This document shows positions 16,315 through 43,772 of a DNA stretch of 64,000 nt, in pieces. The stretch is from positions 1 to 64,000 of the forward strand of contig CAVPVX010000006.1 in the NCBI GenBank assembly GCA_963709345.1, given 5' to 3'. The stretch comes from an uncultured Actinomycetes bacterium. Lineage in GTDB: Bacteria > Actinomycetota > Thermoleophilia > UBA2241. Position 1 is the stretch's first letter; each line of letters starts with the position of its first letter. The notes beneath the pieces are model-generated. The model had not been told where the DNA came from, made no database searches, and was given only the letters and a program-made list of their open reading frames with translations. The position numbers were made by a program, and so were the translations under genes.

Positions 16315-16599
16315 TTGACTGCCGGCCAGGGCGTGGGGGAGTGCGTGGACAACGACGCATCGACCAGTGGGTCCGTGACGAGCCCGAGGCGCACATGGGT
16401 CCGCGTCATGACGGTCTTCAAGGTGCTCGGTGTCGACGTCGGGTGGTATGGAATCGCCGGGTCTGTCGCGCCGATCTCCGGCCCGGTGCTGTACTACGTC
16501 TTCCCGGCCGTGTACGGTGGCCCCGCCACCCCGTCGAGTGAGGCCGGCGACGACACCATCGCCATCGTCGAGGGTGAAGCAGCAGAGGACGCCGCCTGA
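16315..16599 (+). pseudogene. Short ORF, possibly the C-terminal remnant of a permease
   Basis: One hydrophobic segment (..SGPVLYYVF..VYGG) and an acidic tail; TGATG overlap with the downstream mttB-family gene. Confidence 0.35.
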
Positions 16600-18032
16600 T
16601 GCAGACGCAGATACAGGTCCTCTCGGAGGACGAGAAGGCGCAGGTCCACGAGCGCACGCTCAAGGTCCTGAGCACCGTCGGCATGCGCTGCGACACGGCG
16701 GAAGGTCGCCGCATCCTCGCGTCGGCCGGTGCCGATGTCGACGAGGCGACCCGCATGGTGCGCTTCCCGCCGGAATTGGTCGAGAGCCTGCTGGGGCAGG
16801 CGACCCGGCAGTTCACCGTCCAGGGTCGCAGGCCGGGCTGGAGCTTTCCGGTGGGCGCCGGCGACTTCACCTTACTCGCCGACGGCGGCGCCACCTCCGT
16901 CTTCGACGCACGGACCGGCGAGCGCCGGCCCACCACGCTCGACGACTGGCGTGTCGCGACGCGGCTGCTCGACGCCATCGACGACGTCGGCTTCTACTGG
17001 TGTCCCATCGACTACGACGTCGACTACGAGCGCCCCGGCGGCTTCGTGCGCTACTACGCCGACGTCTTCGCCACCTTCGGCAAGCACGTGCAGGACTCGT
17101 TCGGCACCCCGGAGCTGGTTCCGTGGCTCAAGGAGGTGCTCGATATCGTGTTCGGTGGGCCCGACGAGGTTCGCGAGCGCATGCCGATGTCGTTCCTCAT
17201 CACGCCCGCGTCGCCGCTGACCATCGAGCATGACTTCACCCAGACGTGGCTTGATCTGCGCGACTACGGCCTGCCGGTGGCGATAATGCCGATGCCGCTG
17301 CAGGGCGCCACGGCGCCCGGCAGCCGTCTCGGCACGCTCCTCGCCGCCAACTGCGAGACGATCGGCACGCTCTGCCTCGTCCAGGCGGCAGCGCCGGGCA
17401 CGCCGGTGTTCTACGCTCCTGTGCTCGCCACGATGGATCCCCGCACGGGGCTGTACGCCGCCGGCGCGATCGAACACGCGGTACTCTGCGCCGCCGGCAC
17501 CGAGATGGCCCGCCACTACGGTCTGCCTGCCGAGTCCTCGGGCCTCTGCACGCAGACCTACGAGCCCGACATGCAGACCGCCTGGGAGAAGGCCGACAGC
17601 GGGCTGCTCGTCGCTCTGGCCGACCCGGACGTCCTCGTCGGCCCGGGGCTGCTGGGGGGCGCCACGATCCTGTGCCTTGAGCAGATCGTCCTGGACGTCG
17701 AGATGATCCGCAACGCTCGCCAGGCGCACACCGGCGTGCCCGTCCGCGACGACCTCTGGCTCGACGAGATCCTCGACAAGGTCGGGCCGTGCGGCTCGTT
17801 CCTCGGCGAGCGCTCTACGCGGCTCGGCACCCGCAACGGCGAGTGGCGCCTCAGCGACTTCGGCGTCCAGAGCAGCTGGGACGCGTGGCGGGCGGCGGGC
17901 TCTCCGAGCACCATGGCCGCCGCCCGCGAGCGCGTGGACGCCGTCCTTGCCGGGCAGGTCTCGCTGCCGTACAGCGACGACCAGGCTGCGGCTCTCGCCG
18001 AGCTGCAGCGGCGCGCCGACGCGGCATCGTAG
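16599..18032 (+). CDS. Trimethylamine methyltransferase (MttB) superfamily protein, non-pyrrolysine type
   Basis: LS.DE..QVHE.TL.VL..VG, SPL, GATAP, MDPRTG, D.Q.AWEK and VGP.G.FL; no internal TAG. Confidence 0.88.
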   Translation: MQTQIQVLSEDEKAQVHERTLKVLSTVGMRCDTAEGRRILASAGADVDEATRMVRFPPELVESLLGQATRQFTVQGRRPGWSFPVGAGDFTLLADGGATSVFDARTGERRPTTLDDWRVATRLLDAIDDVGFYWCPIDYDVDYERPGGFVRYYADVFATFGKHVQDSFGTPELVPWLKEVLDIVFGGPDEVRERMPMSFLITPASPLTIEHDFTQTWLDLRDYGLPVAIMPMPLQGATAPGSRLGTLLAANCETIGTLCLVQAAAPGTPVFYAPVLATMDPRTGLYAAGAIEHAVLCAAGTEMARHYGLPAESSGLCTQTYEPDMQTAWEKADSGLLVALADPDVLVGPGLLGGATILCLEQIVLDVEMIRNARQAHTGVPVRDDLWLDEILDKVGPCGSFLGERSTRLGTRNGEWRLSDFGVQSSWDAWRAAGSPSTMAAARERVDAVLAGQVSLPYSDDQAAALAELQRRADAAS

Positions 18033-25235: not shown

Positions 25236-25409
25236 GCCTCGATTGTACCCATGTCTCCTTTCATCGGCAGCCGCGCGCCCGAGGAGTAGCCGTCGGCCGC
25301 CGGGTGGCGAGCACGGCCGCGGCGTTCGAAGCCCCGCGGCCGATGCGGTAGAATCGCCTACTCGATGGAGCGGCTCCCGCCGCTCCGCCCGCGACCGTCA
25401 GGAGCTCCC

Positions 25410-26675
25410 GTGAGGATCGCTGTCATCGGTCTGGGCTACGTCGGCCTGCCGCTGGCCATGGTGTTCGCCGAGGGTGGGGTCGAGGTGGTCGGGATCGAGG
25501 CCGTGCCCGAGCGTTGCGCAGAGGTCAATGCTGGTCGGAGCTACATCCAGGATGTGAGGAGCGAGGCTCTCAAGACCATGGTCGACAAGGGCCTCATCTA
25601 CGCGACCACCGACTACGCCGCCACCGAGGACTGCGACGCCGACATCATCTGCCTGCCGACGCCGCTCAACGCCAATCGGGAGCCCGACCTGTCGCTGGTC
25701 AAAGAAGCGACCGCCAAGCTGGCCGGGCACCTGCGGCCCGGCCAACTGGTCACCCTCGAGAGCACGACCTATCCTGGCACGACGCGCGATGAGCTGGCGC
25801 CGATCCTCGAGGCCGGCTCCGGGTTCACGGCCGGCGTCGACTTCCACCTCGCCTTCTCGCCCGAGCGCGTCGACCCTGGGCGTACCGACTACACGACGAA
25901 GAGCACGCCCAAGGTGGTCGGGGGTCTCACCCCCGCCTGCACGGCACGGGCGCTTGAGGTCTACGGACCCTCGCTCGACAACGTCGTCCCGGTGAGCACG
26001 CCCGAGGTCGCCGAGATGACCAAGCTCCTCGAGAACATCTTCCGCAGCGTCAACATCGCCCTCATGAACGAGCTGGCGATGCTCTGCGATCGTATGAAGA
26101 TCGACGTGTGGGAGGTCATCGAAGCGGCTGCCACGAAGCCGTTCGGCTTCATGAAGTTCCAGCCGGGCCCCGGCCTCGGCGGCCACTGCATCCCGATCGA
26201 TCCCTTCTATCTGAGCTGGAAGGCGCGCGAGTTCGACTTCTGGACGGAGTTCATCGAGCTCGCCGGCAAGGTCAACGAGAACATGCCGTACTTCTGCGTC
26301 GAGAAGCTGCACCGGGCGCTGAACACGCGCGGCAAGAGCCTGAACGGCGCCCGCGTGCTCCTCTTGGGCGTCGCCTACAAGGCCGACATCGACGATCTGC
26401 GCGAGAGCCCGGCGCTCAAGGTGATCCGCCTGCTGCGCGACCACGGAGCGGACCTCGCTTACCACGACCCGTACTGCCTCGAGCTGCCGGAGTTCGACCT
26501 GCGTTCCGTCGGCCTCGACGACTACCGCGACCTCTCCGCCTACGACGCGGTCGTCATCGTCACCGCGCACTCGGCGCTGGACTATCGCGCCGTGGTCAAC
26601 GAAGCCGACCTCGTGGTCGACTTCCGCAACGCCACGGCCGGCATCCCGAGCGCCGGCAACGTGTGGAAACTCTAG
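25410..26675 (+). CDS. UDP-N-acetylhexosamine 6-dehydrogenase (WbpA/TviB-like)
   Basis: GLGYVG, CLPTP, ESTTYPG, SPERVDPG, KLLEN.FR and GGHCIPIDP. Confidence 0.9.
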   Translation: MRIAVIGLGYVGLPLAMVFAEGGVEVVGIEAVPERCAEVNAGRSYIQDVRSEALKTMVDKGLIYATTDYAATEDCDADIICLPTPLNANREPDLSLVKEATAKLAGHLRPGQLVTLESTTYPGTTRDELAPILEAGSGFTAGVDFHLAFSPERVDPGRTDYTTKSTPKVVGGLTPACTARALEVYGPSLDNVVPVSTPEVAEMTKLLENIFRSVNIALMNELAMLCDRMKIDVWEVIEAAATKPFGFMKFQPGPGLGGHCIPIDPFYLSWKAREFDFWTEFIELAGKVNENMPYFCVEKLHRALNTRGKSLNGARVLLLGVAYKADIDDLRESPALKVIRLLRDHGADLAYHDPYCLELPEFDLRSVGLDDYRDLSAYDAVVIVTAHSALDYRAVVNEADLVVDFRNATAGIPSAGNVWKL

Positions 26676-26690
26676 AGGGGAGACCCGCTC

Positions 26691-27716
26691 GTGACTGACA
26701 CTGTCCGCGTCGGCGTGGTCGGGCTCGGCTACTGGGGCCCGAACCTCGCGCGCAACTTCGACCGCCTTCCCGGCGCCGAGCTCGCGTACTGCTGCGACCT
26801 CGACGCGAGCAACCTGGACAAGGCGCGCAGCCTGTATCCGAACACCACGGTCACCAACGACTACGCGCAGCTGCTGGCCGACGACAGCCTCGACGCGATC
26901 GTCGTCGCCACGTCGGTGCCGACCCACTACGCCTTGGGCAAGAAGTCGCTCGAGGCCGGCAAGCACACGTTCATCGAGAAGCCGATCGCACTCAAGGCCG
27001 CCGACGCGGAGGACCTGCTGGCGACGGCCGAAGACTACGGCGTCAAGCTCATGGTCGGGCACCTTCTCGAGTACCACCCCGCCGTCGCGAAGATGAAGGA
27101 GCTCATCGACTCCGGCGAGCTCGGCAAGGTCTACTACGCCTACGCCAACCGCCTCAACCTCGGCAAGGTGCGCACCGACGAGAACGCGCTCTGGAGCTTC
27201 GGCCCCCACGACATCTCGGTGCTCAACTACCTCACGGGCGACGAACCCGTGGAGGTGAGCGCCCGCGGCGAGTGCTACCTGCAGGACGAGGTCGAGGACG
27301 TCGTCTTCGGCTACATCAAGTACAAGAGCGGTGTCGTCGGCCACCTGCACGTGAGCTGGCTCGACCCGCACAAGAGCCGCAAGATCACCGTCGTCGGCGA
27401 GAAGAAGATGGTCGTGTTCGACGACATGGAGTCGGAGCGCAAGATCACGGTCTACGACAAGGGCGCCACCACAACGCGCACCAAGTTCGAGACCTACGGT
27501 GAGTTCGTCACCCTCCACTTCGGCGACATCCACATCCCCAAGATCGGCAACGACGAGCCGCTGCGCATCGAGTGCCAGCACTTCGTCGACTGCATCAACG
27601 ACGACGCCCGGCCGCGCAGCGACGGGCACGACGCGCTCAACGTCGTCAAGGTGCTCGACGCCATGGAGGTCAGCCTGCGCGAGGGCGGCCGGCCGGTGAA
27701 GACCTCGGAGCTGTGA
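26691..27716 (+). CDS. Gfo/Idh/MocA oxidoreductase (WbpB-like)
   Basis: GLGYWG, EKP, GH, PHDIS and SWL.P.K.R. Confidence 0.85.
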   Translation: MTDTVRVGVVGLGYWGPNLARNFDRLPGAELAYCCDLDASNLDKARSLYPNTTVTNDYAQLLADDSLDAIVVATSVPTHYALGKKSLEAGKHTFIEKPIALKAADAEDLLATAEDYGVKLMVGHLLEYHPAVAKMKELIDSGELGKVYYAYANRLNLGKVRTDENALWSFGPHDISVLNYLTGDEPVEVSARGECYLQDEVEDVVFGYIKYKSGVVGHLHVSWLDPHKSRKITVVGEKKMVVFDDMESERKITVYDKGATTTRTKFETYGEFVTLHFGDIHIPKIGNDEPLRIECQHFVDCINDDARPRSDGHDALNVVKVLDAMEVSLREGGRPVKTSEL

Positions 27717-34345: not shown

Positions 34346-35211
34346 GACTCGATGACGACGCCCCCGCCCATGGGCACGATCGCCTCGGGGAGCGCGCGAC
34401 CCAGGGCGGCGGCGGCCTTGCGGCCGGTGCAGTGACACGGGGCGAGGGTGCGTGGCGCGCGTCGCGCCAGCTCGCCGGCGACGAGCGCGACGCGCGCCGA
34501 GTCCGCGTCCATCAGGTGGGTCCCCCCGATGAGCTTGACCAACGGGCGCCCGCCGGTGAGCAGGTCGATGTGCTCGAGCGTGGCGAGGACGCCGGCGTGG
34601 GCGCAGCCGAGGATCACCCAAAGGCCCTCCGGCGTGTCGACCCAGAAGGACTGGTCGTCCGGGACCGGGTCGGGCATGGTGCAGGCCGCGTCGAAGAAGA
34701 AGTCCGGGTCGCCGGGTTCGCGGGAGTCGTCTCGGGGCACGATGCCGGTGCACCAGACGCCCGGCACGACCTCGGTGGGCTCGTCCGTCCAGACGATGCG
34801 GTCCGCTGCGGCGAGCGCCGCCTCGCGGGACGCGACCGGCATGCCGATGGGCTCGGGTCGGCTGTGCCGCCGCCGTGAGACGCGCGGCTGAAGCGCGGCG
34901 GGATGCAGGTACAACCGCGCACGCGGCGCTGCCGCGAGCGCGACCGGCAGCCCGCCGGTGTGGTCGTAGTGCCCGTGGCTGAGAGCGATCGCGTCTGCGG
35001 TCCCGAGATCGACTCCGAGCCGTGCCGCGTTGTCGGCAATGGCGCGAGTCTCGCCGGTGTCCACGAGGAGGCGCCGCCCGGCGACCTCGATCCAGAGCGA
35101 GAGGCCGTGCTCCTTGCTCAAACCCGGAACGGCGCTCTCGTTGTCCATGAGGACGGTGATTCGCGGCAGTGCGACCGTCGGCGGTCTCTCGGGAGCGCCT
35201 GCGCCGCTCAC
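34342..35211 (-). CDS. MBL-fold metallo-hydrolase
   Basis: EHGLS, DTG, SHGHYDHTGGL, GCAH.G, GGTHL and PCHCTG. Confidence 0.9.
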   Translation of the reverse strand: MSGAGAPERPPTVALPRITVLMDNESAVPGLSKEHGLSLWIEVAGRRLLVDTGETRAIADNAARLGVDLGTADAIALSHGHYDHTGGLPVALAAAPRARLYLHPAALQPRVSRRRHSRPEPIGMPVASREAALAAADRIVWTDEPTEVVPGVWCTGIVPRDDSREPGDPDFFFDAACTMPDPVPDDQSFWVDTPEGLWVILGCAHAGVLATLEHIDLLTGGRPLVKLIGGTHLMDADSARVALVAGELARRAPRTLAPCHCTGRKAAAALGRALPEAIVPMGGGVVIES

Positions 35212-35540
35212 AGGTGCGTCCTCGCGGCAGGCGGGTGCACCCGGTCCCCGCGCAGCAGCCGGCTCACCGCGTCGGTGACTTGCGGCACCACGCGCGGGAC
35301 CCAGACCAGCAGCCAAATGAGCAGGAGGGCAAGGATGACGGTCAGCGATCCGACGACGGCAAGGATGTTTCGCACCCAGAGCGTGTAGCAGATGAGGGCC
35401 GAGACGCCGAGGACCGTGACGAGCTGGCTCGAGACGGGAAGGCGTTCGTAGGCCACCCAGATCAGCCACACCCCGAGCACGATGAGCGCGCCGGTCACGG
35501 CGTAGGCGAGCAGCCACGTGGCGACGACGGGGAGCATCAT
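35208..35540 (-). CDS. Small multi-pass membrane protein
   Basis: Three hydrophobic segments; GTGA overlap with the MBL gene. Confidence 0.6.
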   Translation of the reverse strand: MMLPVVATWLLAYAVTGALIVLGVWLIWVAYERLPVSSQLVTVLGVSALICYTLWVRNILAVVGSLTVILALLLIWLLVWVPRVVPQVTDAVSRLLRGDRVHPPAARTHL

Positions 35541-35642
35541 GGGCCGATTGTACCGCTCCCCGGCGGCGCGAGTGCTCAACTACCCCGTCTGAGCGGCTGG
35601 CGCGAACCCGTGACCGTGTGATTACGTAGCGCTGCCCGTTCC

Positions 35643-37136
35643 ATGAGCGGACCGAGGAGGCAGGGCGTGAAGCGTAATCTGTTCGCCGGCCGCCGCCGCA
35701 GCGGCGGCCTCAAACTCGACGTCTTCACGGACGACGAGGTCCAGGATATCCACCTCGCGACCCTTGAGGTCCTGGAGCGCACCGGCGTGTGGGTCGAGAT
35801 CGACGAAGCGCTGGACATCTTCGCCGACGGCGGCTGTGTCGTCGAACGCGAGAGCCGTATCGTGCGCATCCCGCCACATCTGGTCGAGGACGCGATCCGC
35901 AGCGCGCCTGCCAGCATCACCCTCTGCGGCCGCGACCCGAAGAACGACATCGTGATCGAGGCTGGTCGCGTCGGCTTCAGCAACTTCGGCGAAGGTGTGC
36001 TCGTGATCGACCCTGACGACGGCGAGCTGCGCGCCTCCACGAAGCAGGACCTCGCCGACATCGCCCGGCTCTGCGACGCGCTTCCGTCGGTCGATGTGTT
36101 TGAGATCGCCGTCGGCGCCGGCGACATGCCCCCGCAGACGGCGTCGCTGCACAATCACGAGGCCGCGATCGTCAATCAGACGAAGCCGATCTCCGGAGGG
36201 CCGCTCGACGGTCGTGCCGTCAAGGCCAGCCTGCGGATGCTCGAGGCCGTGCAGGGCAGCCCGGAGGCCGTGCGCGAGCGGCCGATGATGATCATGGGCA
36301 CTTGCCCCGTCAGCCCGCTCAAGCTGGTCAAGGACTGCTGCGAGATCATCATCGAGGCGGCGCGCGCCGGTGTGCCCAGCTGCGTACTCAGCATGGCGAT
36401 GGCCGGCGGGTCCAGCCCGGTGACACTCGCGGGAACGCTGGTCACGCACAACGCCGAGGTGCTCGCCGGCGTCGTCCTCTCACAGCTCACCGAGCGCGGC
36501 GCCAAGGTGCTGTACGGTAGCTCGACGACCGCCATGGACCTGCGGCTCGCGGCCGCGTCGGTCGGCTCGCCGGAGCTCGCCCTGATCAGCGCCGGCGCGG
36601 CCCAGATCGCCAGGCAGTACCGCCTGCCGAGCTATATCGCCGGTGCGTAGGGCGACAGCAAGCTCGGTGACGCCCAGTCCGGTCACGAGAAGACCCTCAC
36701 GGCCTTGATGGCAGCGTTGGCAGGGACCAACCTGATCTACGGCCTGGGAATGATCGAGTCGGGCGTCACCTTCGACTACGCGCAGCTCGTCATGGACGAC
36801 GAGATCGCGCGCATGGTCAAGCACGTGGTCGGCGGTATCCGCGTCGACGACGAGGCGCTGGCCGTCGACGACATCCACGCTGTGGGAGCCTTCGGTGACT
36901 TCCTCAGCCTCGACGCGACGATGCGGCACATGCGCGAGGCGTCGCAACCGGAGCTGATCGATCGCCGCGTGCGCGAGGACTGGGAGGCGCGCGGCAGCAG
37001 CGACCTCTACCAGCGGTCGCTGCTCAAGGCGCGCCACATCCTCGAGACGCACCATCCGGAGCCGCTGCCCGACGACGTGCGGCGGCGCATACGTCAGATC
37101 GTGGACGACGCCGACGGGGATCTCGCCGGGGCGTGA
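35643..37136 (+). CDS. mttB: Pyrrolysine-containing trimethylamine:corrinoid methyltransferase (497 aa, in-frame TAG at 36648-36650 = codon 336)
   Basis: ORFs 35643-36650 and 36705-37136 share one frame; the junction reads LPSYIAGA-[TAG]-GDSKLGDAQSGHEKT...GTNLIYGLGMIE, the conserved Pyl context of MttB. Confidence 0.93.
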
Positions 37137-37206
37137 CCGCGCCGGCGAGTCCGGGTGCCCGAGCCGGCCGGCGCGCGGATGTGGGACAACGCGCCGGCCC
37201 TCGGGG

Positions 37207-37893
37207 TCAGCGCGACGCGGCCAGGATGCGGGCGACGCCGCTTGGGCCCAAGGGCGGGTCGCTCCATCCGGTCGTCAGCTTGACCTTGAGCGTGTAGCTG
37301 CCGTCGCTCGGAGTGTACGAGAAGTCGCCCAGCCCGGTACCGGCGACCATCGGGGAGCCGGTCCACGGGTTCTTGGGCCACGCGTAGCCGGCGCCGAAGG
37401 CCTCCGGCGTCATGTCGGCGGCGGGGTAGCCGCCCGCGTGCGCCGCCGCGTACGCTTCCACGTAGCGCTGCAGCAGGAGCAGGTTCTGCTTCGCCGCCGT
37501 GTCACGCTCGCTCTTGAACCAGCGCGGCATGCCCCCGGTGAGCTTGTAGCTGCCCTTGGACAGGTGCATGACGAGCTTGTAGCTGGTGCCGCCGGCCCCG
37601 AGAGTGTACGTGAACGTTCCTCTCGACTTCCCCGCCGCCATGACTTTGCCCGTCCAGGGGTTGGCGGGCCAGATCGGCGTGGTGAGCCCGCCGCCCTTCT
37701 TGACCATCTTCGCCGGGGGGTACTTGAAGTGCCGCGCCTGGCCGTACTGGTTGATGTAGTTCTGCAGGAGGAGCCCGCTGGCCTGGACCTGTCGGTCGAC
37801 GAAGCCCAGGGCAGCGGCCCGGCCCGGCATCAGGGCGCCGGCGAGCAGCAGCACGGCGAGCGAGAGTAAGAGGATGGTGATACGTCTTGGCAC
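37207..37893 (-). CDS. Secreted protein with two tandem pilin-head-like (WPxNPWTG) modules
   Basis: AGGAGG RBS, Sec signal (AAA), WPANPWTG and WPKNPWTG repeats. Confidence 0.7.
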   Translation of the reverse strand: MPRRITILLLSLAVLLLAGALMPGRAAALGFVDRQVQASGLLLQNYINQYGQARHFKYPPAKMVKKGGGLTTPIWPANPWTGKVMAAGKSRGTFTYTLGAGGTSYKLVMHLSKGSYKLTGGMPRWFKSERDTAAKQNLLLLQRYVEAYAAAHAGGYPAADMTPEAFGAGYAWPKNPWTGSPMVAGTGLGDFSYTPSDGSYTLKVKLTTGWSDPPLGPSGVARILAASR

Positions 37894-37913
37894 GAGATAG
37901 CCTCCTGTGACGG

Positions 37914-38933
37914 TCACGGCTCCGAGGGGCTCGACTCGGCAGCCGGGGCCGGCGCGGTGCCGCCGGCCTCGAAGTCCCCCGAGTGCAGGTGGACGGTGAG
38001 CGTGAAGGCGCCGGCGGCGCCGGGAGCGTAGGTGTAGGCCCCCGGCGCTGTGCCCTGCCCAATCGCGCTGCCGGTGAGTGGATCCTGCGGCCAGTCGGGG
38101 TGCGCGGCGCCGACTGCGCCTCCGGCGGCGAGGTCGGCCACCTGCGGCAGCTCGCCGCCGTGCTGCAGGGACCACTGGCCGACGTAGCCGGAGAGGATGC
38201 GTGCGCTGCGCCGGAGGATCTCGTCCTCCAGGCTGGCGAGGAGGCGCAGCCACGGGTTCGTGGCGGCGGCGCCTCTCTGCACGTAGTCGCTCTTGAGGGC
38301 GCGGTGGAGGCGCAGGGTGTAGGCCGAACGGTCGGCGGTCACGCCGTACGAGAACGAACCGTGGTCTGAGCGCTGCTGCATGTCGGCGTGGTCCCACGGG
38401 TTGCTCGGCCAGTAGCCGCAGCCCGGCTGCTTGCCTACGGCGCCGTCGCCGGCCACGTCAGCGCTCGCCGGATAGCGCCCGCCGTGGGCGCGGGCGTACT
38501 GCTCGATGTAGTGGCGAATGAGGTTGAGGCCCTCCTCGCCGCGGTGGTCGTAGGCGAGCTTCATGGAGTGTGGCATGCCCCCGCGAACGGTGACGACCCC
38601 GCCATCCAGATACCCTGTCAGTCGGTATCGCCGTCTATTGGTCGTGACCGTGTACGTGTAGTGACCGCGGCCGCTCCCCGGTGTGAGTCGAGCTCCCGTC
38701 CACGGATCGCGTGGCCACCACGTCGAGTCGAGGCCTCCCGGCCGGACCATGGCGCGCGAGGGAAACTGGAAGTACTTGGCCGCTCCGGCGCGGTCGATGA
38801 GACCTCGCAGGGCCATGATGCTCTCGCGCATCTCCGTGTTCGACGACGCGGCCTGCACCGGCGCTGCGCCGGCGGTGAGCAGGCACGCGGCGACCGCGGC
38901 GATGGCAGCGATGGCGCAGGCGTGTCGAACCAT
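37914..38933 (-). CDS. Secreted protein with three tandem pilin-head-like modules
   Basis: Sec signal (VQA), WPRDPWTG, WPSNPWD and WPQDPLTG repeats. Confidence 0.7.
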   Translation of the reverse strand: MVRHACAIAAIAAVAACLLTAGAAPVQAASSNTEMRESIMALRGLIDRAGAAKYFQFPSRAMVRPGGLDSTWWPRDPWTGARLTPGSGRGHYTYTVTTNRRRYRLTGYLDGGVVTVRGGMPHSMKLAYDHRGEEGLNLIRHYIEQYARAHGGRYPASADVAGDGAVGKQPGCGYWPSNPWDHADMQQRSDHGSFSYGVTADRSAYTLRLHRALKSDYVQRGAAATNPWLRLLASLEDEILRRSARILSGYVGQWSLQHGGELPQVADLAAGGAVGAAHPDWPQDPLTGSAIGQGTAPGAYTYAPGAAGAFTLTVHLHSGDFEAGGTAPAPAAESSPSEP

Positions 38934-39079
38934 GGTGGGTCGTCTCCCTTCGCGCTAAGTGTGGCCACCGGGCGGGGGCCGGTCAAGCCGCGAGCCGTCG
39001 GGCGCGCTGCTCACCCGCCTGATACGATTCGGCACGAGCGCCGCGGGGCCTGCGGCCGGCGCGCGATCTCGATTCGGAG

Positions 39080-40483
39080 GTGATGCCGGTGGATGCAGGG
39101 AACGCGAAGATCCCGACGCGCATGGGCGACGGCTTCATGGTCGAGATGACCTGCGCCGAGCTGCGCGCCGACCTCGAGGAGGCAACGCAGGAGGCGGCGC
39201 GCAAGGCCAAGGCGCCGCCGCTCTCCCAGGACGAACTCGACCATCTCCTCGACATCTATGCCTCGCGGGCGGCGTTCACCGCCGTCGACATCGGCGACCA
39301 GGTGGTCCTCAGCTGCGACGGCGGCGGTAGCAAGCTGACCGGCACCGACCTGCTCGACCTGCTCGAGAGCGAGCAGCGCCTCGGCCAGGACATCCTTGAG
39401 CTCTGGCACATCGAGTACAGCTACAAGGCGATCAAGACCATCCTGCCGTTCCAGCAGCAGGTGATGCAGAACGTCCAGCTCATGTGCACGGCCCCGGTGC
39501 AGTACGGGGCGCAGCCGAACCTCGCCTTCTACAGCAAGCCCGACGGTCCGGCCGGCAACTTCTTCGAGATGTTGCCGCGCGGGGACATCGCCGGGGCGCG
39601 CGCCGCTATGGAAGAGGCCATGGAGCACGCCACCAAGGACTTCATCTATGTGGGCGAGGGCATGCTCGACGCCGGCGCTGACGGCATGGACTTCGACACC
39701 ACCGGCGGCGCCGGCGACGCCGACTTCTTCAGCACGCTGCGCGCCGTGAAGCACCTGCGCGAGAGGTACCCCGACGCCGGTATCGAGGTCGGCATGGCCG
39801 GCGAGTTCGTGATCGGCGTGCACGGCGAGCTCGAGTGGGATGGCAGGCGACTCGCCGGCCTCTGGCCGAGGGAGCAGCTCGAGCTTTGCCAGGACGCCGG
39901 CGTCACCATCTTCGGGCCGGCGGTCAACATCCGCACGGGCAGGAGCTGCGCCTGGAACGCCGCGTACTCGATCACCGCGATGAAGCCCTGCATGGATGTC
40001 GCGCGTATCCCGGTCCACCCGAACGTGGGGCAGGGGGTCTGCGGTGTGCCCGTCAACGGCTACCCGGGCGAGGACGCCTCGTCGCGGGCGGCCAAGGCAC
40101 ACGTCGATCTGCTGCGCTGCGACGGGTTGTAGGTGGGCTCGGGTGACTCCAGAGGCATGGACGTCACCCACGCGCTCGCCGCGGGCATGGGCGGGATGCG
40201 CACGGCCGGAGACCTGGTCGCGCGCATGCAGATGGCCCGCGGGATGCGCCTCGAGCCGGCGAAGCGGTACGTCGCCGGCAAGCTGGGCTGCACGGTCCGC
40301 GACCTCAGCGACAGCTGCGCGATGGAGCAGATCCGCGGCGAGAGGGGTCTGGGGAGGATCCTCGACCACTCGAACCTGCACCCCGGCGAGCCCAACGCGA
40401 TGATGGCCAAGTTCCGGATCGCCGAGCTGCTGGGTGTGCCGATCAGCTCGGTGGAGCGGTTCCGGGAGCTGGCAGGGATCTGA
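39080..40483 (+). CDS. mtbB: Pyrrolysine-containing dimethylamine:corrinoid methyltransferase (467 aa, in-frame TAG at 40130-40132 = codon 351)
   Basis: TRMGDG, YSYK, PN...Y.KPDGP, FDTTG.AGDADF, GMAGEF and FGPAVN; the junction DGL-[TAG]-VGSGD..GM...H..A.GMGG.RTAGDLVARMQ is the MtbB Pyl context. Confidence 0.93.
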
Positions 40484-40602
40484 CGGCGTCTTGAGGAGCG
40501 CTGCAGTCTTCGCCGGATGCTGCCGATGGAGATGGCAGGCAGCGCTCGCGTGGTCGCAAGGGCTGCGGATCGCTGCCGGGTCCATGGACGGGAGGCAAGA
40601 AG

Positions 40603-40986
40603 ATGAAGCGTTGTACGAGCATCGCCCTCGTCGCCGTCCTGATGCTCCTCGCCGCCGGGGTCTTCGCCGGCTGCGGGTGTCAGGAAGCGGTTGAGGACGA
40701 GACCACCGGCCAGATCGACCAGGCCAAGGACGCCGCCGCCAAGGTCCAGCTGATGATGATCAAGACGGGGATCCAGGCCTTCATCGCCTCGAGCGGTCAG
40801 GCGCCGGCCGACGCCTCGGAGGCCACGCTCGGCGGCTTCGTCAGCCCGTGGCCCGTCAATCCCTGGACGCAGGCGCCGATGAAGGCCGGTGACGGCGTGG
40901 GCGACTACGTCTACACGCCGGGCGCCGGCGCGGAGTTCACGCTCGCCGTGCACCTTTCGGACGGCTCGACTGCTACGGCGCCGTGA
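40603..40986 (+). CDS. Lipoprotein with one pilin-head-like module
   Basis: Lipobox FAGC; AKVQL..IKTGIQAF...WPVNPWTQ..GDYVY...FTLAVHLSDG. Confidence 0.75.
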   Translation: MKRCTSIALVAVLMLLAAGVFAGCGCQEAVEDETTGQIDQAKDAAAKVQLMMIKTGIQAFIASSGQAPADASEATLGGFVSPWPVNPWTQAPMKAGDGVGDYVYTPGAGAEFTLAVHLSDGSTATAP

Positions 40987-41105
40987 CGTCGGGACCGGGT
41001 GCCGGGCGTGTGCCGGCCGGCGCGACGGCGCCGGCCGGCCCGTGGCCCCGTGCTTGAGGGCGGCAGAGGCGCTTGATACCCTAGGTCTCGGTGGGGGGAG
41101 ACGCG

Positions 41106-42212
41106 ATGGGCTTCTTCAGCGGCTGGCGTGGCAAGCTCGTGCTCGTGGCGCTGGGCGTGGCCTGCCTCCTCGGCGTGACCCTGCCTGTGGCCGCCACCGA
41201 GGGCGACGCCACCCCGACCTGGAAACTCAAGAAGTATCAGAGTCGCGGCTGGGATCGCAGCTACAAGTGCGATCTGGCGCAGGAGATGCGCAAGGTGCCG
41301 CGCGTCGTGGTCTACGGCGGTTCACGAGGGCTGCGCATGGATCCGGCGACGATCAAGCGCCGCACCGGACTCACGGCCTTCAACTTCGCTCTCCACAACG
41401 GCCGGCCTGAGGACGCCTGGGCCATCACCGACTGGCTCATCGACAGCCATCCGGACAAGCCCCCTGCAGTGGTCTGGTGCATGCAGGCGACGACCCTCGC
41501 CGACGCGCCGATGGCGCCCGGGCTCTTCAACGACGAGCGCCTCTCCCAGGCGTTTCCCAAGGCGCTCGTCAAGGCCAAGCTGGCGTGGGCGATGCGTCAG
41601 CCGAATCGCAACGTGCTCTCCGGCCGTCGCTACGGCTTCGACGGGATGCTCTGGTGGAACAGCTACGACCGCAAGCGCAAAGAGGGTCTGAGCCTGCAGC
41701 AGTCGCTGACGCACTATCTCGACACCGACATGCTCGCCAGGGCGGGCAACCGCAAGGTGCCGAAGAACACCCGGGCGATGGCGTACTTCGAGCGCACCCT
41801 TCGCCTGCTCAACGTCAGCCACATCAAGCCCGTGATCGTCATCATGCCCTACCATCCGAGAGTGCTGAAGGCGTTCATGTCGGTCGGATGGGGCGTCAAG
41901 CAGAGCTGGCTGGTCAACTATCTCAAGCGGTTGCAGAAGTACTACGATTTCCGTGTCGTCAATTGCCTCCGTATCGGGACCTTCGGCGGCAGCCCCGACG
42001 GCTTCTTCGACGGTTCGCACCTCACGGCCGGTAACTCACGGCGGCTTCTCCGCTACGTCATGAACAAGGCGCCGGGGTGCTTCCGCGTGCCCAAGCCGAC
42101 GCCGACGCCGACTCCATCCGCGAGTCCGAGCGCGAGCCCCTCCACTGTGCCGGCTCCGGCCTACGTACCGGTTCCCGAAGACACGAGCGCACCCGCCGAC
42201 TACCTCGAGTAG
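41106..42212 (+). CDS. Secreted SGNH-like protein (DltD/AlgJ-like) with a Pro/Thr/Ser tail
   Basis: Signal peptide; VVYGGSR, FNFAL and FFDGSHL blocks. Confidence 0.55.
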   Translation: MGFFSGWRGKLVLVALGVACLLGVTLPVAATEGDATPTWKLKKYQSRGWDRSYKCDLAQEMRKVPRVVVYGGSRGLRMDPATIKRRTGLTAFNFALHNGRPEDAWAITDWLIDSHPDKPPAVVWCMQATTLADAPMAPGLFNDERLSQAFPKALVKAKLAWAMRQPNRNVLSGRRYGFDGMLWWNSYDRKRKEGLSLQQSLTHYLDTDMLARAGNRKVPKNTRAMAYFERTLRLLNVSHIKPVIVIMPYHPRVLKAFMSVGWGVKQSWLVNYLKRLQKYYDFRVVNCLRIGTFGGSPDGFFDGSHLTAGNSRRLLRYVMNKAPGCFRVPKPTPTPTPSASPSASPSTVPAPAYVPVPEDTSAPADYLE

Positions 42213-42258
42213 GGGCGCCGCGGGCAGGCGCGCCGCGCCGGCGTCTGCCGGGGGCTGC

Positions 42259-43635
42259 TCAGGCGCCGATCAGTCTCTTGACGTAGCCGGCGCGCTTGCT
42301 CGGCCTCCCCGTGCGCGCCTCCACGGCGTCGGCGCTGTCCATCGCCGCGAGAGCGGCGTTGACCCCGAGCCAGCGCAGCGGTTCCGGCTCCCACGGCTTC
42401 GAGCGGTGGCCGACCCAGGGCAGCCGTGTCAACTCCGTCTCGTGTTCGAGGATGAGGTCGCGCAGCGTGCGCGCCGCAAGATTGGTGGTCGAGACGCCGT
42501 CGCCGACATACGCGCCCGCCCAGGCCATGCCGCTCGGGCGGTCCAGGCCGACGGAGCTGTACCAGTCTCGCGACGCGGCGATCGCGCCGCCCCAGTGGTG
42601 CGTCACCCGGGCGTCGCCGATGGTGGGGAACAGCTCGCCGAGAAGGCGCCGGAGGTGGTCCTGCACCTTCGTCACGCGCTCGTAGCGCTCGCTCAGCCGC
42701 GAGCCGAAATGGTACGGTGCGCCACGGCCGCCGATGGCGATGCGACCATCGTCGGTGTGCATCGCGTAGAAGATGAGGAAGCGGAAGTCGCCGAACACCT
42801 CGTGGTCGCTCCATCCGACCTCGTCCCAGAAGGAGTCCGGGAGCGGTTCGGTGCCGATCATCAAGGAGTAGATCGGCACCACGGCGCGCTCGTAGCCGGG
42901 CAACTCTGGTGTGAACGCTTCGGTGGCGCGCACGACGACGTCGGCGCGGACGTCGCCGGACGCGGTCGCGGCGAGGTGGGGTTCGATGCGCGTCACCGGG
43001 GTGCGCTCGTAGATCGGCACCCCGAGGCGCTCCACCACGTCGGCCAGGCCGCGCGCGAGGCGGGCCGGGTCGACGGCGGCGCCATGCGGCGTGTAGACGG
43101 CGCCGAGGCACCCGGCCACTCTGATGCGCTCCCGCATCTCGGCGGCGCCGAGCATGGCGTAGTCGTCCTCCCCGAATCCCCAGCTGCGCTCGTAGTCGAG
43201 AGCATCCCGGGCGCGCAGCAGTTGGACGGGGGTCGTGGCCAGGTCCAGCTGCCCGCCGATGTGGAAGCGCGCGTCGATCGCCTCGTCGGCCACGACGCGC
43301 GCTATCTCGGTCACCGTCGCGTGCAGTGCGCGCTGCTGATCGACGACAGCTTGGCGACCGTGCGTCTTGGCGGCTGCTTCGCGAGACCCGGGGAACGTCG
43401 TGTGGCACCAGCCGCCGTTGCGCCCGGACGCGCCGAATCCGGCGATCTCGCGCTCGAGTACCGCGACGCGCAGGTGGGGATCGGCCTTCTTGAGGTAGTA
43501 GGCGGTCCAGAGGCCGGTGAATCCGCCGCCGACGACCGCGACGTCCACGGCGAGCGGCCCGGGCAGTGAGGGACGCGGCGTCAGCACGCCGGGCACACCG
43601 TCGAGCCACATGCTGCGGGCGCGGTAGTCGGTCAT
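42259..43635 (-). CDS. FAD-dependent amine oxidoreductase (DAO family, PuuB-like)
   Basis: GGGFTGLWTAY, GASGRNGGW, HHWGG and Y.GDGV. Confidence 0.88.
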   Translation of the reverse strand: MTDYRARSMWLDGVPGVLTPRPSLPGPLAVDVAVVGGGFTGLWTAYYLKKADPHLRVAVLEREIAGFGASGRNGGWCHTTFPGSREAAAKTHGRQAVVDQQRALHATVTEIARVVADEAIDARFHIGGQLDLATTPVQLLRARDALDYERSWGFGEDDYAMLGAAEMRERIRVAGCLGAVYTPHGAAVDPARLARGLADVVERLGVPIYERTPVTRIEPHLAATASGDVRADVVVRATEAFTPELPGYERAVVPIYSLMIGTEPLPDSFWDEVGWSDHEVFGDFRFLIFYAMHTDDGRIAIGGRGAPYHFGSRLSERYERVTKVQDHLRRLLGELFPTIGDARVTHHWGGAIAASRDWYSSVGLDRPSGMAWAGAYVGDGVSTTNLAARTLRDLILEHETELTRLPWVGHRSKPWEPEPLRWLGVNAALAAMDSADAVEARTGRPSKRAGYVKRLIGA

Positions 43636-43772
43636 GTCAAGCTCCTTTGAGGTGAAGGCGTCCTGCACGGCTCGTGGCGAGCGTGGCGTCTCGTGAGAGG
43701 AAGGGATGGGCAGGAGGGACGTACTCGCGACGGCAGGCGACGGGCGAGCGGCTGGTCACGCGGGCCGTCCCA

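Follow-up and report, generated by a model that had tools for sequence, protein, structure and literature searches.

We have analysed a stretch of 64,000 nucleotides (hereafter the window) from an uncultured Thermoleophilia bacterium (contig CAVPVX010000006.1), in which two methyltransferase genes are each crossed by a single in-frame amber codon. The first, on the plus strand at 35643..37136, is mttB, a trimethylamine:corrinoid methyltransferase gene of the pyrrolysine (Pyl) type, and the second, on the same strand at 39080..40483, is mtbB, the Pyl-type gene for a dimethylamine:corrinoid methyltransferase. It is very probable that this bacterium carries two Pyl-dependent methylamine methyltransferase genes in which UAG is read as Pyl.

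The coordinates of mttB are those of the longest open reading frame (ORF). In the table 11 translation, the segment 35643-37136 contained one internal stop, at residue 336, and ended with a TGA. The ORF list held it as two pieces in a common frame, 35643..36650 (335 aa, from an ATG) and 36705..37136 (143 aa, from a TTG), and the DNA around the stop reads gcg tag ggc, with the TAG at 36648-36650. An initial annotation of this DNA had joined the two pieces, split by nothing but this TAG, into a product of 497 aa with the TAG at codon 336 counted from the ATG, and the translation, the ORF list and the DNA all bear it out. The 18 codons linking the pieces, which encode GDSKLGDAQSGHEKTLTA, had been described as open and conserved, and the motif GDSK..DAQ.GHEKT was indeed present in all Pyl-type copies. 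The G+C content at third codon positions (GC3) was 0.89 upstream of the TAG and 0.90 downstream. One probable correction concerns the start. A Shine-Dalgarno sequence (GAGGAGG, 35654-35660) lies ahead of a GTG at 35667 with a spacer of 6 nt, and the mttB ORFs of the relatives begin MKRN; therefore, the gene probably starts at GTG 35667, which would give a protein of 489 aa with Pyl at residue 328.

The read-through product matched PF06253 (Pfam MTTB) with 330.7 bits and the NCBIfam equivalog TIGR02369 ([trimethylamine--corrinoid protein] Co-methyltransferase) with 707.5 bits, the cutoff being 525. The best matches among solved structures were those of the trimethylamine methyltransferase of Methanosarcina barkeri, 7xcm (E 1e-123) and 7xcl (E 8e-123). 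In a residue-by-residue alignment, the X of 7xcl_A, i.e., Pyl334, stood opposite residue 336 of the query. The TAG falls exactly on the Pyl column of the M. barkeri enzyme, and the earlier identification of the gene as a Pyl-type MttB, for which this alignment had been proposed as a check, stands. The predicted pyrrolysine codon of mttB (36648..36650, plus strand; codon 336 from the ATG, 328 from the GTG) was also placed by the Rfam family PYLIS_3 (RF02510), which matched at 36648-36747 with model positions 1-3 (UAG) on the TAG. Among the active-site positions singled out in the accessible text of the structural study (PMC9842639), Gly110 (G116 in the window), Met249 (M251), Tyr364 (Y366) and Gly372 (G374) are kept in the alignment with 7xcl; Gly110 and Tyr364 are described there as 100% conserved among Pyl MttBs. 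The non-Pyl members of the superfamily, such as the glycine betaine methyltransferase MtgB (2qne/9yce), share the TIM-barrel family PF06253, but the amber MttB of the window is much closer to Pyl MttB (416 bits) than to MtgB (242 bits) and carries the TAG.

The initial annotation found the amber mttB and overlooked the second amber gene 3 kb downstream. This gene, mtbB, has candidate starts at GTG 39080, ATG 39083 or GTG 39089, with a Shine-Dalgarno sequence (GGAGG) at 39076-39080. It matched PF09505 with 500.9 bits and TIGR02368 with 371.1 bits (cutoff 369.1), and the Pfam match was split by the TAG at profile position 354. The predicted pyrrolysine codon is the in-frame TAG at 40130..40132 (plus strand), codon 351 from GTG 39080. 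It was placed via the Rfam family PYLIS_2 (RF02509; match at 40130-40229, model positions 1-3, UAG, on the TAG) and not via a direct alignment with archaeal MtbB proteins.

Both genes were compared with 72 loci obtained by a genome scan (numbered L001 onwards), mostly from metagenome-assembled genomes (MAGs) named as uncultured Thermoleophilia bacterium. The nearest, L001, is from such a MAG and had a protein identity of 96% and a DNA identity of 90.3% over 7,299 bases, in agreement with the Actinomycetota-like host that had been suggested from the sequence; in other loci the DNA identity was 76-80% over 13-18 kb with the gene order unchanged. The window thus derives from a Thermoleophilia bacterium that matches no representative genome identically. 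When residues 296-375 of MttB were searched against the 72 loci by tblastn, TAG was found at the Pyl column in 74 of 95 rows, with the frame open on both sides, and the remaining 21 rows were distant paralogs with sense codons. At least one TAG-mttB was present in 70 of the 72 loci. For mtbB, there was a stop at the Pyl column in 89 of 90 rows (47 loci), and all 89 stops were TAG. The 46 MAGs with a TAG-mttB included 43 labelled Actinomycetota, 36 of them Thermoleophilia. Both amber genes lay within the fetched flanks in 32 MAGs, the maximum being at least three mttB and at least six mtbB copies. One locus, L027 (JBLMXT010000388.1), is titled Deltaproteobacteria bacterium, although its mttB-mtbB region is 80% identical and syntenic to the Thermoleophilia loci, and its bin assignment looks doubtful.

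The segments downstream of the TAGs were found to evolve as coding sequence. The median ratio of nonsynonymous to synonymous substitution rates (dN/dS) over 62 copies of mttB was 0.32 upstream of the TAG and 0.36 downstream. Against L001 the values were 0.06 and 0.13, with 5, 4 and 21 differences at codon positions 1, 2 and 3 after the TAG. The mttB frame beyond the TAG was of 161 codons in 44 of 72 copies. For mtbB, the corresponding medians over 68 copies were 0.63 (upstream) and 0.43 (downstream), and the closest orthologs gave 0.13-0.22. The post-TAG segments of both genes are maintained as protein by purifying selection, which excludes a pseudogene, an assembly error or a recent nonsense mutation. 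Together with the conservation of the TAG, this selection argues for read-through. A frame that is broken under table 11, and the 327-aa piece that gene callers emit, would also follow from a pseudogene, from an error in sequencing or assembly, or from a gene split into separately made pieces of 335 aa and 143 aa (from TTG 36705). We find this scarcely credible, since 46 independent MAGs share the identical TAG over 74 copies, the protein sequence encoded by the 18 codons that separate it from the TTG is conserved in all Pyl-type copies, and it occupies the catalytic Pyl column. The truncation by gene callers is widespread. A protein database search retrieved 3,249 proteins at E<=1e-30 among 8,000 scored candidates, and 76 of the best 120 relatives were short, 63 of these being exactly 327 aa long and most ending ...SYIAGA just before the TAG. 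These entries represent mttB itself, ended by gene callers at its amber codon. The expectation in the initial annotation that a pipeline would call a pseudogene did not hold, as gene callers emit the shortened ORF with no pseudogene flag.

Several observations weigh against Pyl decoding. Thr111 of the M. barkeri enzyme is replaced by Glu117 in the window MttB (in M. barkeri this is described as a main-chain contact, in the accessible text of PMC9842639), and mtbB clears the TIGR02368 cutoff by 2 bits only. All of the ten relatives with a sense residue at the Pyl column that were tested pass the TIGR02369 cutoff (553-771 bits); therefore, the family score alone is no proof of Pyl use, and membership in TIGR02369 is necessary, not sufficient, for a Pyl MttB. 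No pylT, pylS, pylB, pylC or pylD was found within the 64-kb window or among the annotated ORFs of the 72 loci, and when a corrinoid protein, a RACo-type activase and an MtaA-like protein from related loci were used as tblastn queries, the window gave only noise at E up to 1. TAG is also a common stop. In a crude, GC3-filtered set of ORFs from the window and the loci, which supports only the statement that TAG is not avoided, the stops were TGA in 574, TAG in 172 and TAA in 32 (TAG 172/778). Last, an in-frame TGA or TAA followed within 10 codons in 2.4% of the TAG stops versus 12.7% of the TGA stops. An enrichment of backup stops behind TAG was accordingly rejected, the trend being the opposite.

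In the window by itself the stops were TGA in 30, TAG in 10 and TAA in 2 (TAG 10/42). UAG is not reassigned genome-wide; it is an ordinary stop that ends about a fifth (~22%) of the genes, and Pyl insertion must therefore compete with termination or be regulated. Pyl insertion in other Pyl bacteria is likewise described as competing with termination or being switched on at need. A separate observation concerns a UDP-glucose dehydrogenase gene (25290-26675, plus strand) that ends in TAG and is followed in the same frame by a Gfo/Idh/MocA oxidoreductase gene (26676-27716, plus strand). There is no other stop between them, so amber read-through would fuse both proteins.

In the 44 full-length proteins among the best 120 relatives (49-61% identity), the Pyl column was occupied by Leu (17), Trp (16), Val (3), Ser (2), Ala (1) and Thr (1), with a gap in four. 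At the column of Tyr364, Phe or Ala predominates in the Leu type, and the Trp type has Tyr in 10 of 16 and Phe or Glu in the others. In a quick tree of 53 rows, which has only Shimodaira-Hasegawa-like approximate likelihood ratio test (SH-aLRT) support and does not include archaeal MttB, the Thermoleophilia TAG copies formed one group (16 rows, support 83). Adjacent to it was a group in which two TAG forms were mixed with sense-codon forms, and the TAG label required at least three changes. From the comparison of these proteins, the Pyl column seems to switch repeatedly between TAG and sense codons one base away from it. The TAGs could be imagined as being read by other means, for instance near-cognate decoding or a suppressor tRNA, with insertion of a canonical residue (e.g., Trp, Leu or Gln) in enzymes that work without Pyl. 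Such a reading would fit the Trp, Leu and other residues at this column, the sense-residue relatives that pass the family cutoff, the single base that separates TGG, TTG and TCG from TAG, and the lack of a pyl gene in any of the sequences examined (the window and the annotated ORFs of the 72 loci). We regard it as very improbable. The position of both TAGs is precisely that of Pyl in the archaeal enzymes, and the Pyl-activating Tyr364 and Gly110 are kept, whereas the Leu-type relatives mostly carry Phe or Ala in place of Tyr364. TAG has long been kept in 74 copies of mttB and 89 of mtbB, though one base change gives a sense codon. In addition, the accessible material of PMC9630628 includes, for a Thermoleophilia MAG, a PylSc that has the residues of the Pyl pocket.

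The search for the Pyl machinery and the partner proteins used Pfam or NCBIfam annotation of the likely genes of the window and, in the loci, of 75 recurrent ORF clusters, 29 additional ORFs and another 52 from seven loci whose gene contexts differ (L029, L034, L035, L058, L060, L064 and L066); ORF clusters present in fewer than three loci were mostly left unannotated. PylS, PylB, PylC and PylD were absent from these scans of the window and of the annotated locus ORFs, and neither a B12-binding protein nor RamA was found among the likely genes of the window. ARAGORN detected no tRNA at all in the window, and the 72 loci gave none with a CUA anticodon. Run locally with default settings and with -ps, it gave no tRNA-Pyl, and the 3,421 calls obtained with -ps80 were noise. 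The only Rfam matches in the window at the gathering threshold were the two PYLIS matches, with no tRNA. The absence of partners across the window concerns the locus and not the organism, the rest of whose genome is unseen. Because the window holds no pyl gene, we can only infer Pyl decoding in this genome, where it is nevertheless strongly implied.

The partners were found elsewhere in the lineage. An MttC-like corrinoid gene was present in 20 of the 72 loci, in MAGs that also hold orthologs of the window locus (e.g., L003 and L042), and a RACo/RamA-like activase gene was present in three; the partners absent from the window therefore exist in the lineage. At five loci (L052, L056, L061, L067 and L071), radical-SAM (S-adenosylmethionine) genes resembling lysine 2,3-aminomutase adjoin RACo-type activase and MttB-family genes. 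These KamA-like genes were not counted as PylB, which belongs to a different family. The lack of pyl genes, corrinoid protein and activase in 64 kb, with the rest of the genome unseen, is also what would be expected if the pyl operon had been lost from this genome and mttB and mtbB were relics, truncated at their TAGs and decaying. This is very improbable, because dN/dS after the TAG of mttB has been 0.13 since the split from L001 (90% nucleotide identity), with changes concentrated at third codon positions as given above, and because both genes are otherwise intact and have full-length downstream frames.

Both PYLIS families describe RNA structures, and we searched for conserved folding downstream of the UAGs. 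The mtbB transcript contains a conserved hairpin of 13 pairs (40196..40227, plus strand; +67 to +98 nt from the UAG), which corresponds to the 3' helix of PYLIS_2. Folding of the 120 nt that follow the mtbB TAG gave z = -4.13, and none of 200 shuffles was as stable. The hairpin was kept across 82 distinct copies, and its varying pairs are third codon positions opposing each other; one of them was found as GC in 34, CG in 31 and GU in 9 copies, and another as CG in 32, GC in 30 and UG in 13. In 52 distinct 44-nt rows, 93.9% of the cells paired versus 85.2% in shuffles, and there were 46 double-change cells versus 15.3; none of 500 shuffles reached either value. In controls where the partners were slid by 1-3 columns, 32-43% of the cells paired. 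Covariation at synonymous sites thus supports the 3' helix of mtbB. The mtbB copies do not retain the 5' helix of PYLIS_2, in which 5 of the 11 pairs form in less than 55% of the copies.

The situation in mttB is different. The RNA after its TAG showed no excess stability (z = -0.65) and almost no covariation (the covariation term was -0.74 kcal/mol), and a PYLIS structure is not supported for this gene. The full-length Rfam matches starting at the two UAGs scored 60.5 bits (gathering score 36) and 64.8 bits (gathering score 38), scores that mainly reflect coding-sequence similarity, with many pairs marked as non-canonical. We know of no demonstration that PYLIS elements have a role in Pyl insertion. 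What mttB does contain is a small invariant hairpin, GUUGG-loop-CCAAC (36716..36731, plus strand; +69 to +84, 5 bp). Its pairs, from 69-84 to 73-80, were invariant in 72 copies and hence without covariation, so it is a candidate structure only. The hairpin depends on Leu359 being TTG (98%) and Ala360 being GCA (100%), which are the only two of 246 conserved degenerate columns of mttB with a fixed rare codon; in these genes TTG makes up 5.3% of the Leu codons and GCA 5.9% of the Ala codons. The lack of a common structure for mttB agrees with Theil Have 2013, in whose accessible text structure is reported for mtmB and mtbB and none for mttB (PMC3639795). Both hairpins are probably too distant from the UAG to contact the ribosome that decodes it. 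One possibility, which we put forward tentatively and consider rather unlikely, is that Thermoleophilia read UAG as Pyl in a context-dependent way and that the hairpins some 70-95 nt downstream could act as cis-elements, raising insertion or coupling it to regulation. If true, this would be the first covariation-backed recoding element for Pyl in bacteria, and it would belong to a large clade of Pyl users that has been overlooked and whose genomes contain as many as nine amber methyltransferase genes.

Between mttB and mtbB are two genes for secreted repeat proteins on the minus strand (~37207-37930 and 37914-38933), each with an N-terminal hydrophobic segment, and directly after mtbB comes a small lipoprotein-like paralog of the same repeat family (40603..40986, plus strand; signal peptide ...FAGC). 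These are followed by a gene for a secreted protein without an assigned family (41091-42212) and an oxidoreductase gene dependent on flavin adenine dinucleotide (FAD) (42259-43668, minus strand). A repeated motif, WPxNPWTG...G.F.YT, is common to the three secreted or lipoprotein paralogs that flank the amber genes, and none of the three had a Pfam or NCBIfam match. The minus-strand pair was kept at the same position in 14-16 related loci, and the small lipoprotein gene was found in 21. A pilin-like nature of these proteins is only a lead, taken from predictions. Atlas pointed to the T2SS-G pseudopilin with 0.82 (scores of 0.82-0.86, below the Atlas trust level), and the AlphaFold2 model of the small lipoprotein (mean predicted local distance difference test, pLDDT, 83.9) showed a long helix and a small sheet. 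Against the PDB, its best matches were type IV pilins, with a best E of 0.41 and 0 of 486 matches at E<=0.001. A scan of 35000-42400 for promoters and terminators gave none of either.

Among the related loci we distinguished two types. Type A is that of the window and comprises L001-L034 (77-96% identity); it has no corrinoid gene. Its order is an unknown gene (minus), mttB (plus), the secreted proteins (minus), mtbB (plus) and the small lipoprotein (plus), followed by further secreted proteins, the FAD oxidoreductase (minus), a SAM methyltransferase and a zinc alcohol dehydrogenase. Type B (L036-L054 and others, 63-70% identity) contains several mtbB and mttB copies, TetR and ATP-binding cassette (ABC) transporter genes, and has a gene for an MttC-like B12-binding protein directly 3' of mttB. 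Some type B loci (e.g., L039, L041 and L045) pack up to five amber mtbB and one or two amber mttB genes within 21 kb. Both types coexist in single MAGs, such as those of L003 with L042 and L012 with L040. The window itself holds a third gene of the MttB superfamily (16578..18032, plus strand, as a stop-to-stop frame), a non-Pyl paralog without internal TAG that matched PF06253 with 212.3 bits. Its TIGR02369 score was 288.5 bits (cutoff 525), it is 26% identical to Pyl MttB, and it has Cys at the Pyl column. This paralog terminates with TAG, and a DUF1015 gene lies downstream on the opposite strand, with no corrinoid gene nearby.

Most documented Pyl users are methanogens, Firmicutes or Deltaproteobacteria, and the bacterial ones include Desulfitobacterium, Acetohalobium, Bilophila and the Olavius symbiont. 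In these, as here, UAG is still a common stop and a few methyltransferase genes have an in-frame UAG. Their pyl genes cluster with mttB and mttC; in contrast, the annotated ORFs of the window and the 72 loci contained no pyl gene within 10 kb. In M. barkeri a corrinoid gene presumably adjoins mttB, and the window differs in that no mttC, mttP or ramA adjoins its mttB and in that its host is a 70% GC bacterium. The M. barkeri MttB (7xcl/7xcm/7xcn; Li et al. 2023, PMC9842639) is nonetheless of the same family and length, with the match extending over residues 10-494.

An Actinomycetota host had been called notable in the initial annotation, and it is less new than was thought there, the trait having been published already (PMC9630628, PMC10805028). 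According to the accessible text and supplement of Guo 2022, PylRS genes occur in 81 bacterial genomes, two of them Actinobacteria, and the names given are Actinobacteria bacterium ADurb.BinA094 and Thermoleophilia bacterium, each listed with a PylSc (PMC9630628). In the accessible text of Ellenbogen 2023, permafrost-mire Actinobacteriota MAGs express Pyl-encoding mttB and mtbB, and the genus RBG-16-64-13 is among the active methylotrophs (PMC10805028). RBG-16-64-13 and UBA2241 are given as Thermoleophilia orders in the part available of a preprint (bioRxiv 10.64898/2026.09.14.751414). These cases are from the same phylum and probably the same class as ours, and the same gene pair was recognised there by its amber truncation; as far as the accessible parts of both papers extend, they give no locus anatomy and do not link the methyltransferases to pyl genes within one genome. 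The breadth and the locus anatomy of the trait in Thermoleophilia were not covered in the literature that is searchable as full text.

If both genes are read through as Pyl enzymes, MttB would methylate the Co(I) corrinoid carried by its cognate protein with trimethylamine as the donor, and MtbB would do so with dimethylamine. The single in-frame UAG of each gene would be read as Pyl by a tRNA-Pyl/PylRS pair whose genes lie elsewhere in the genome, in competition with termination or under regulation, and Pyl would activate the amine, as it does in the enzyme of M. barkeri. The corrinoid partner, the reductive activase and the downstream methyl acceptor would likewise be encoded elsewhere in the genome. 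As in other bacterial Pyl users, the methyl group would presumably pass to tetrahydrofolate and not to coenzyme M. What the sequences show is the family membership, the placement and conservation of the TAGs, the selection on the frames behind them and the mtbB hairpin; the Pyl insertion, the substrates, the partners and this physiology we infer.

There is no new principle in these findings, which add a poorly studied host to a known system. Every such amber gene is cut short by standard gene calling, and this makes the trait invisible in routine annotation. Taken with the 46 related MAGs, the window shows that Thermoleophilia of soil and sediment hold whole families of amber tri- and dimethylamine methyltransferase genes, in a lineage that would be a high-GC bacterial setting for UAG as both stop and Pyl codon. 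Methylotrophic methanogens may face competition for methylamines from these bacteria.

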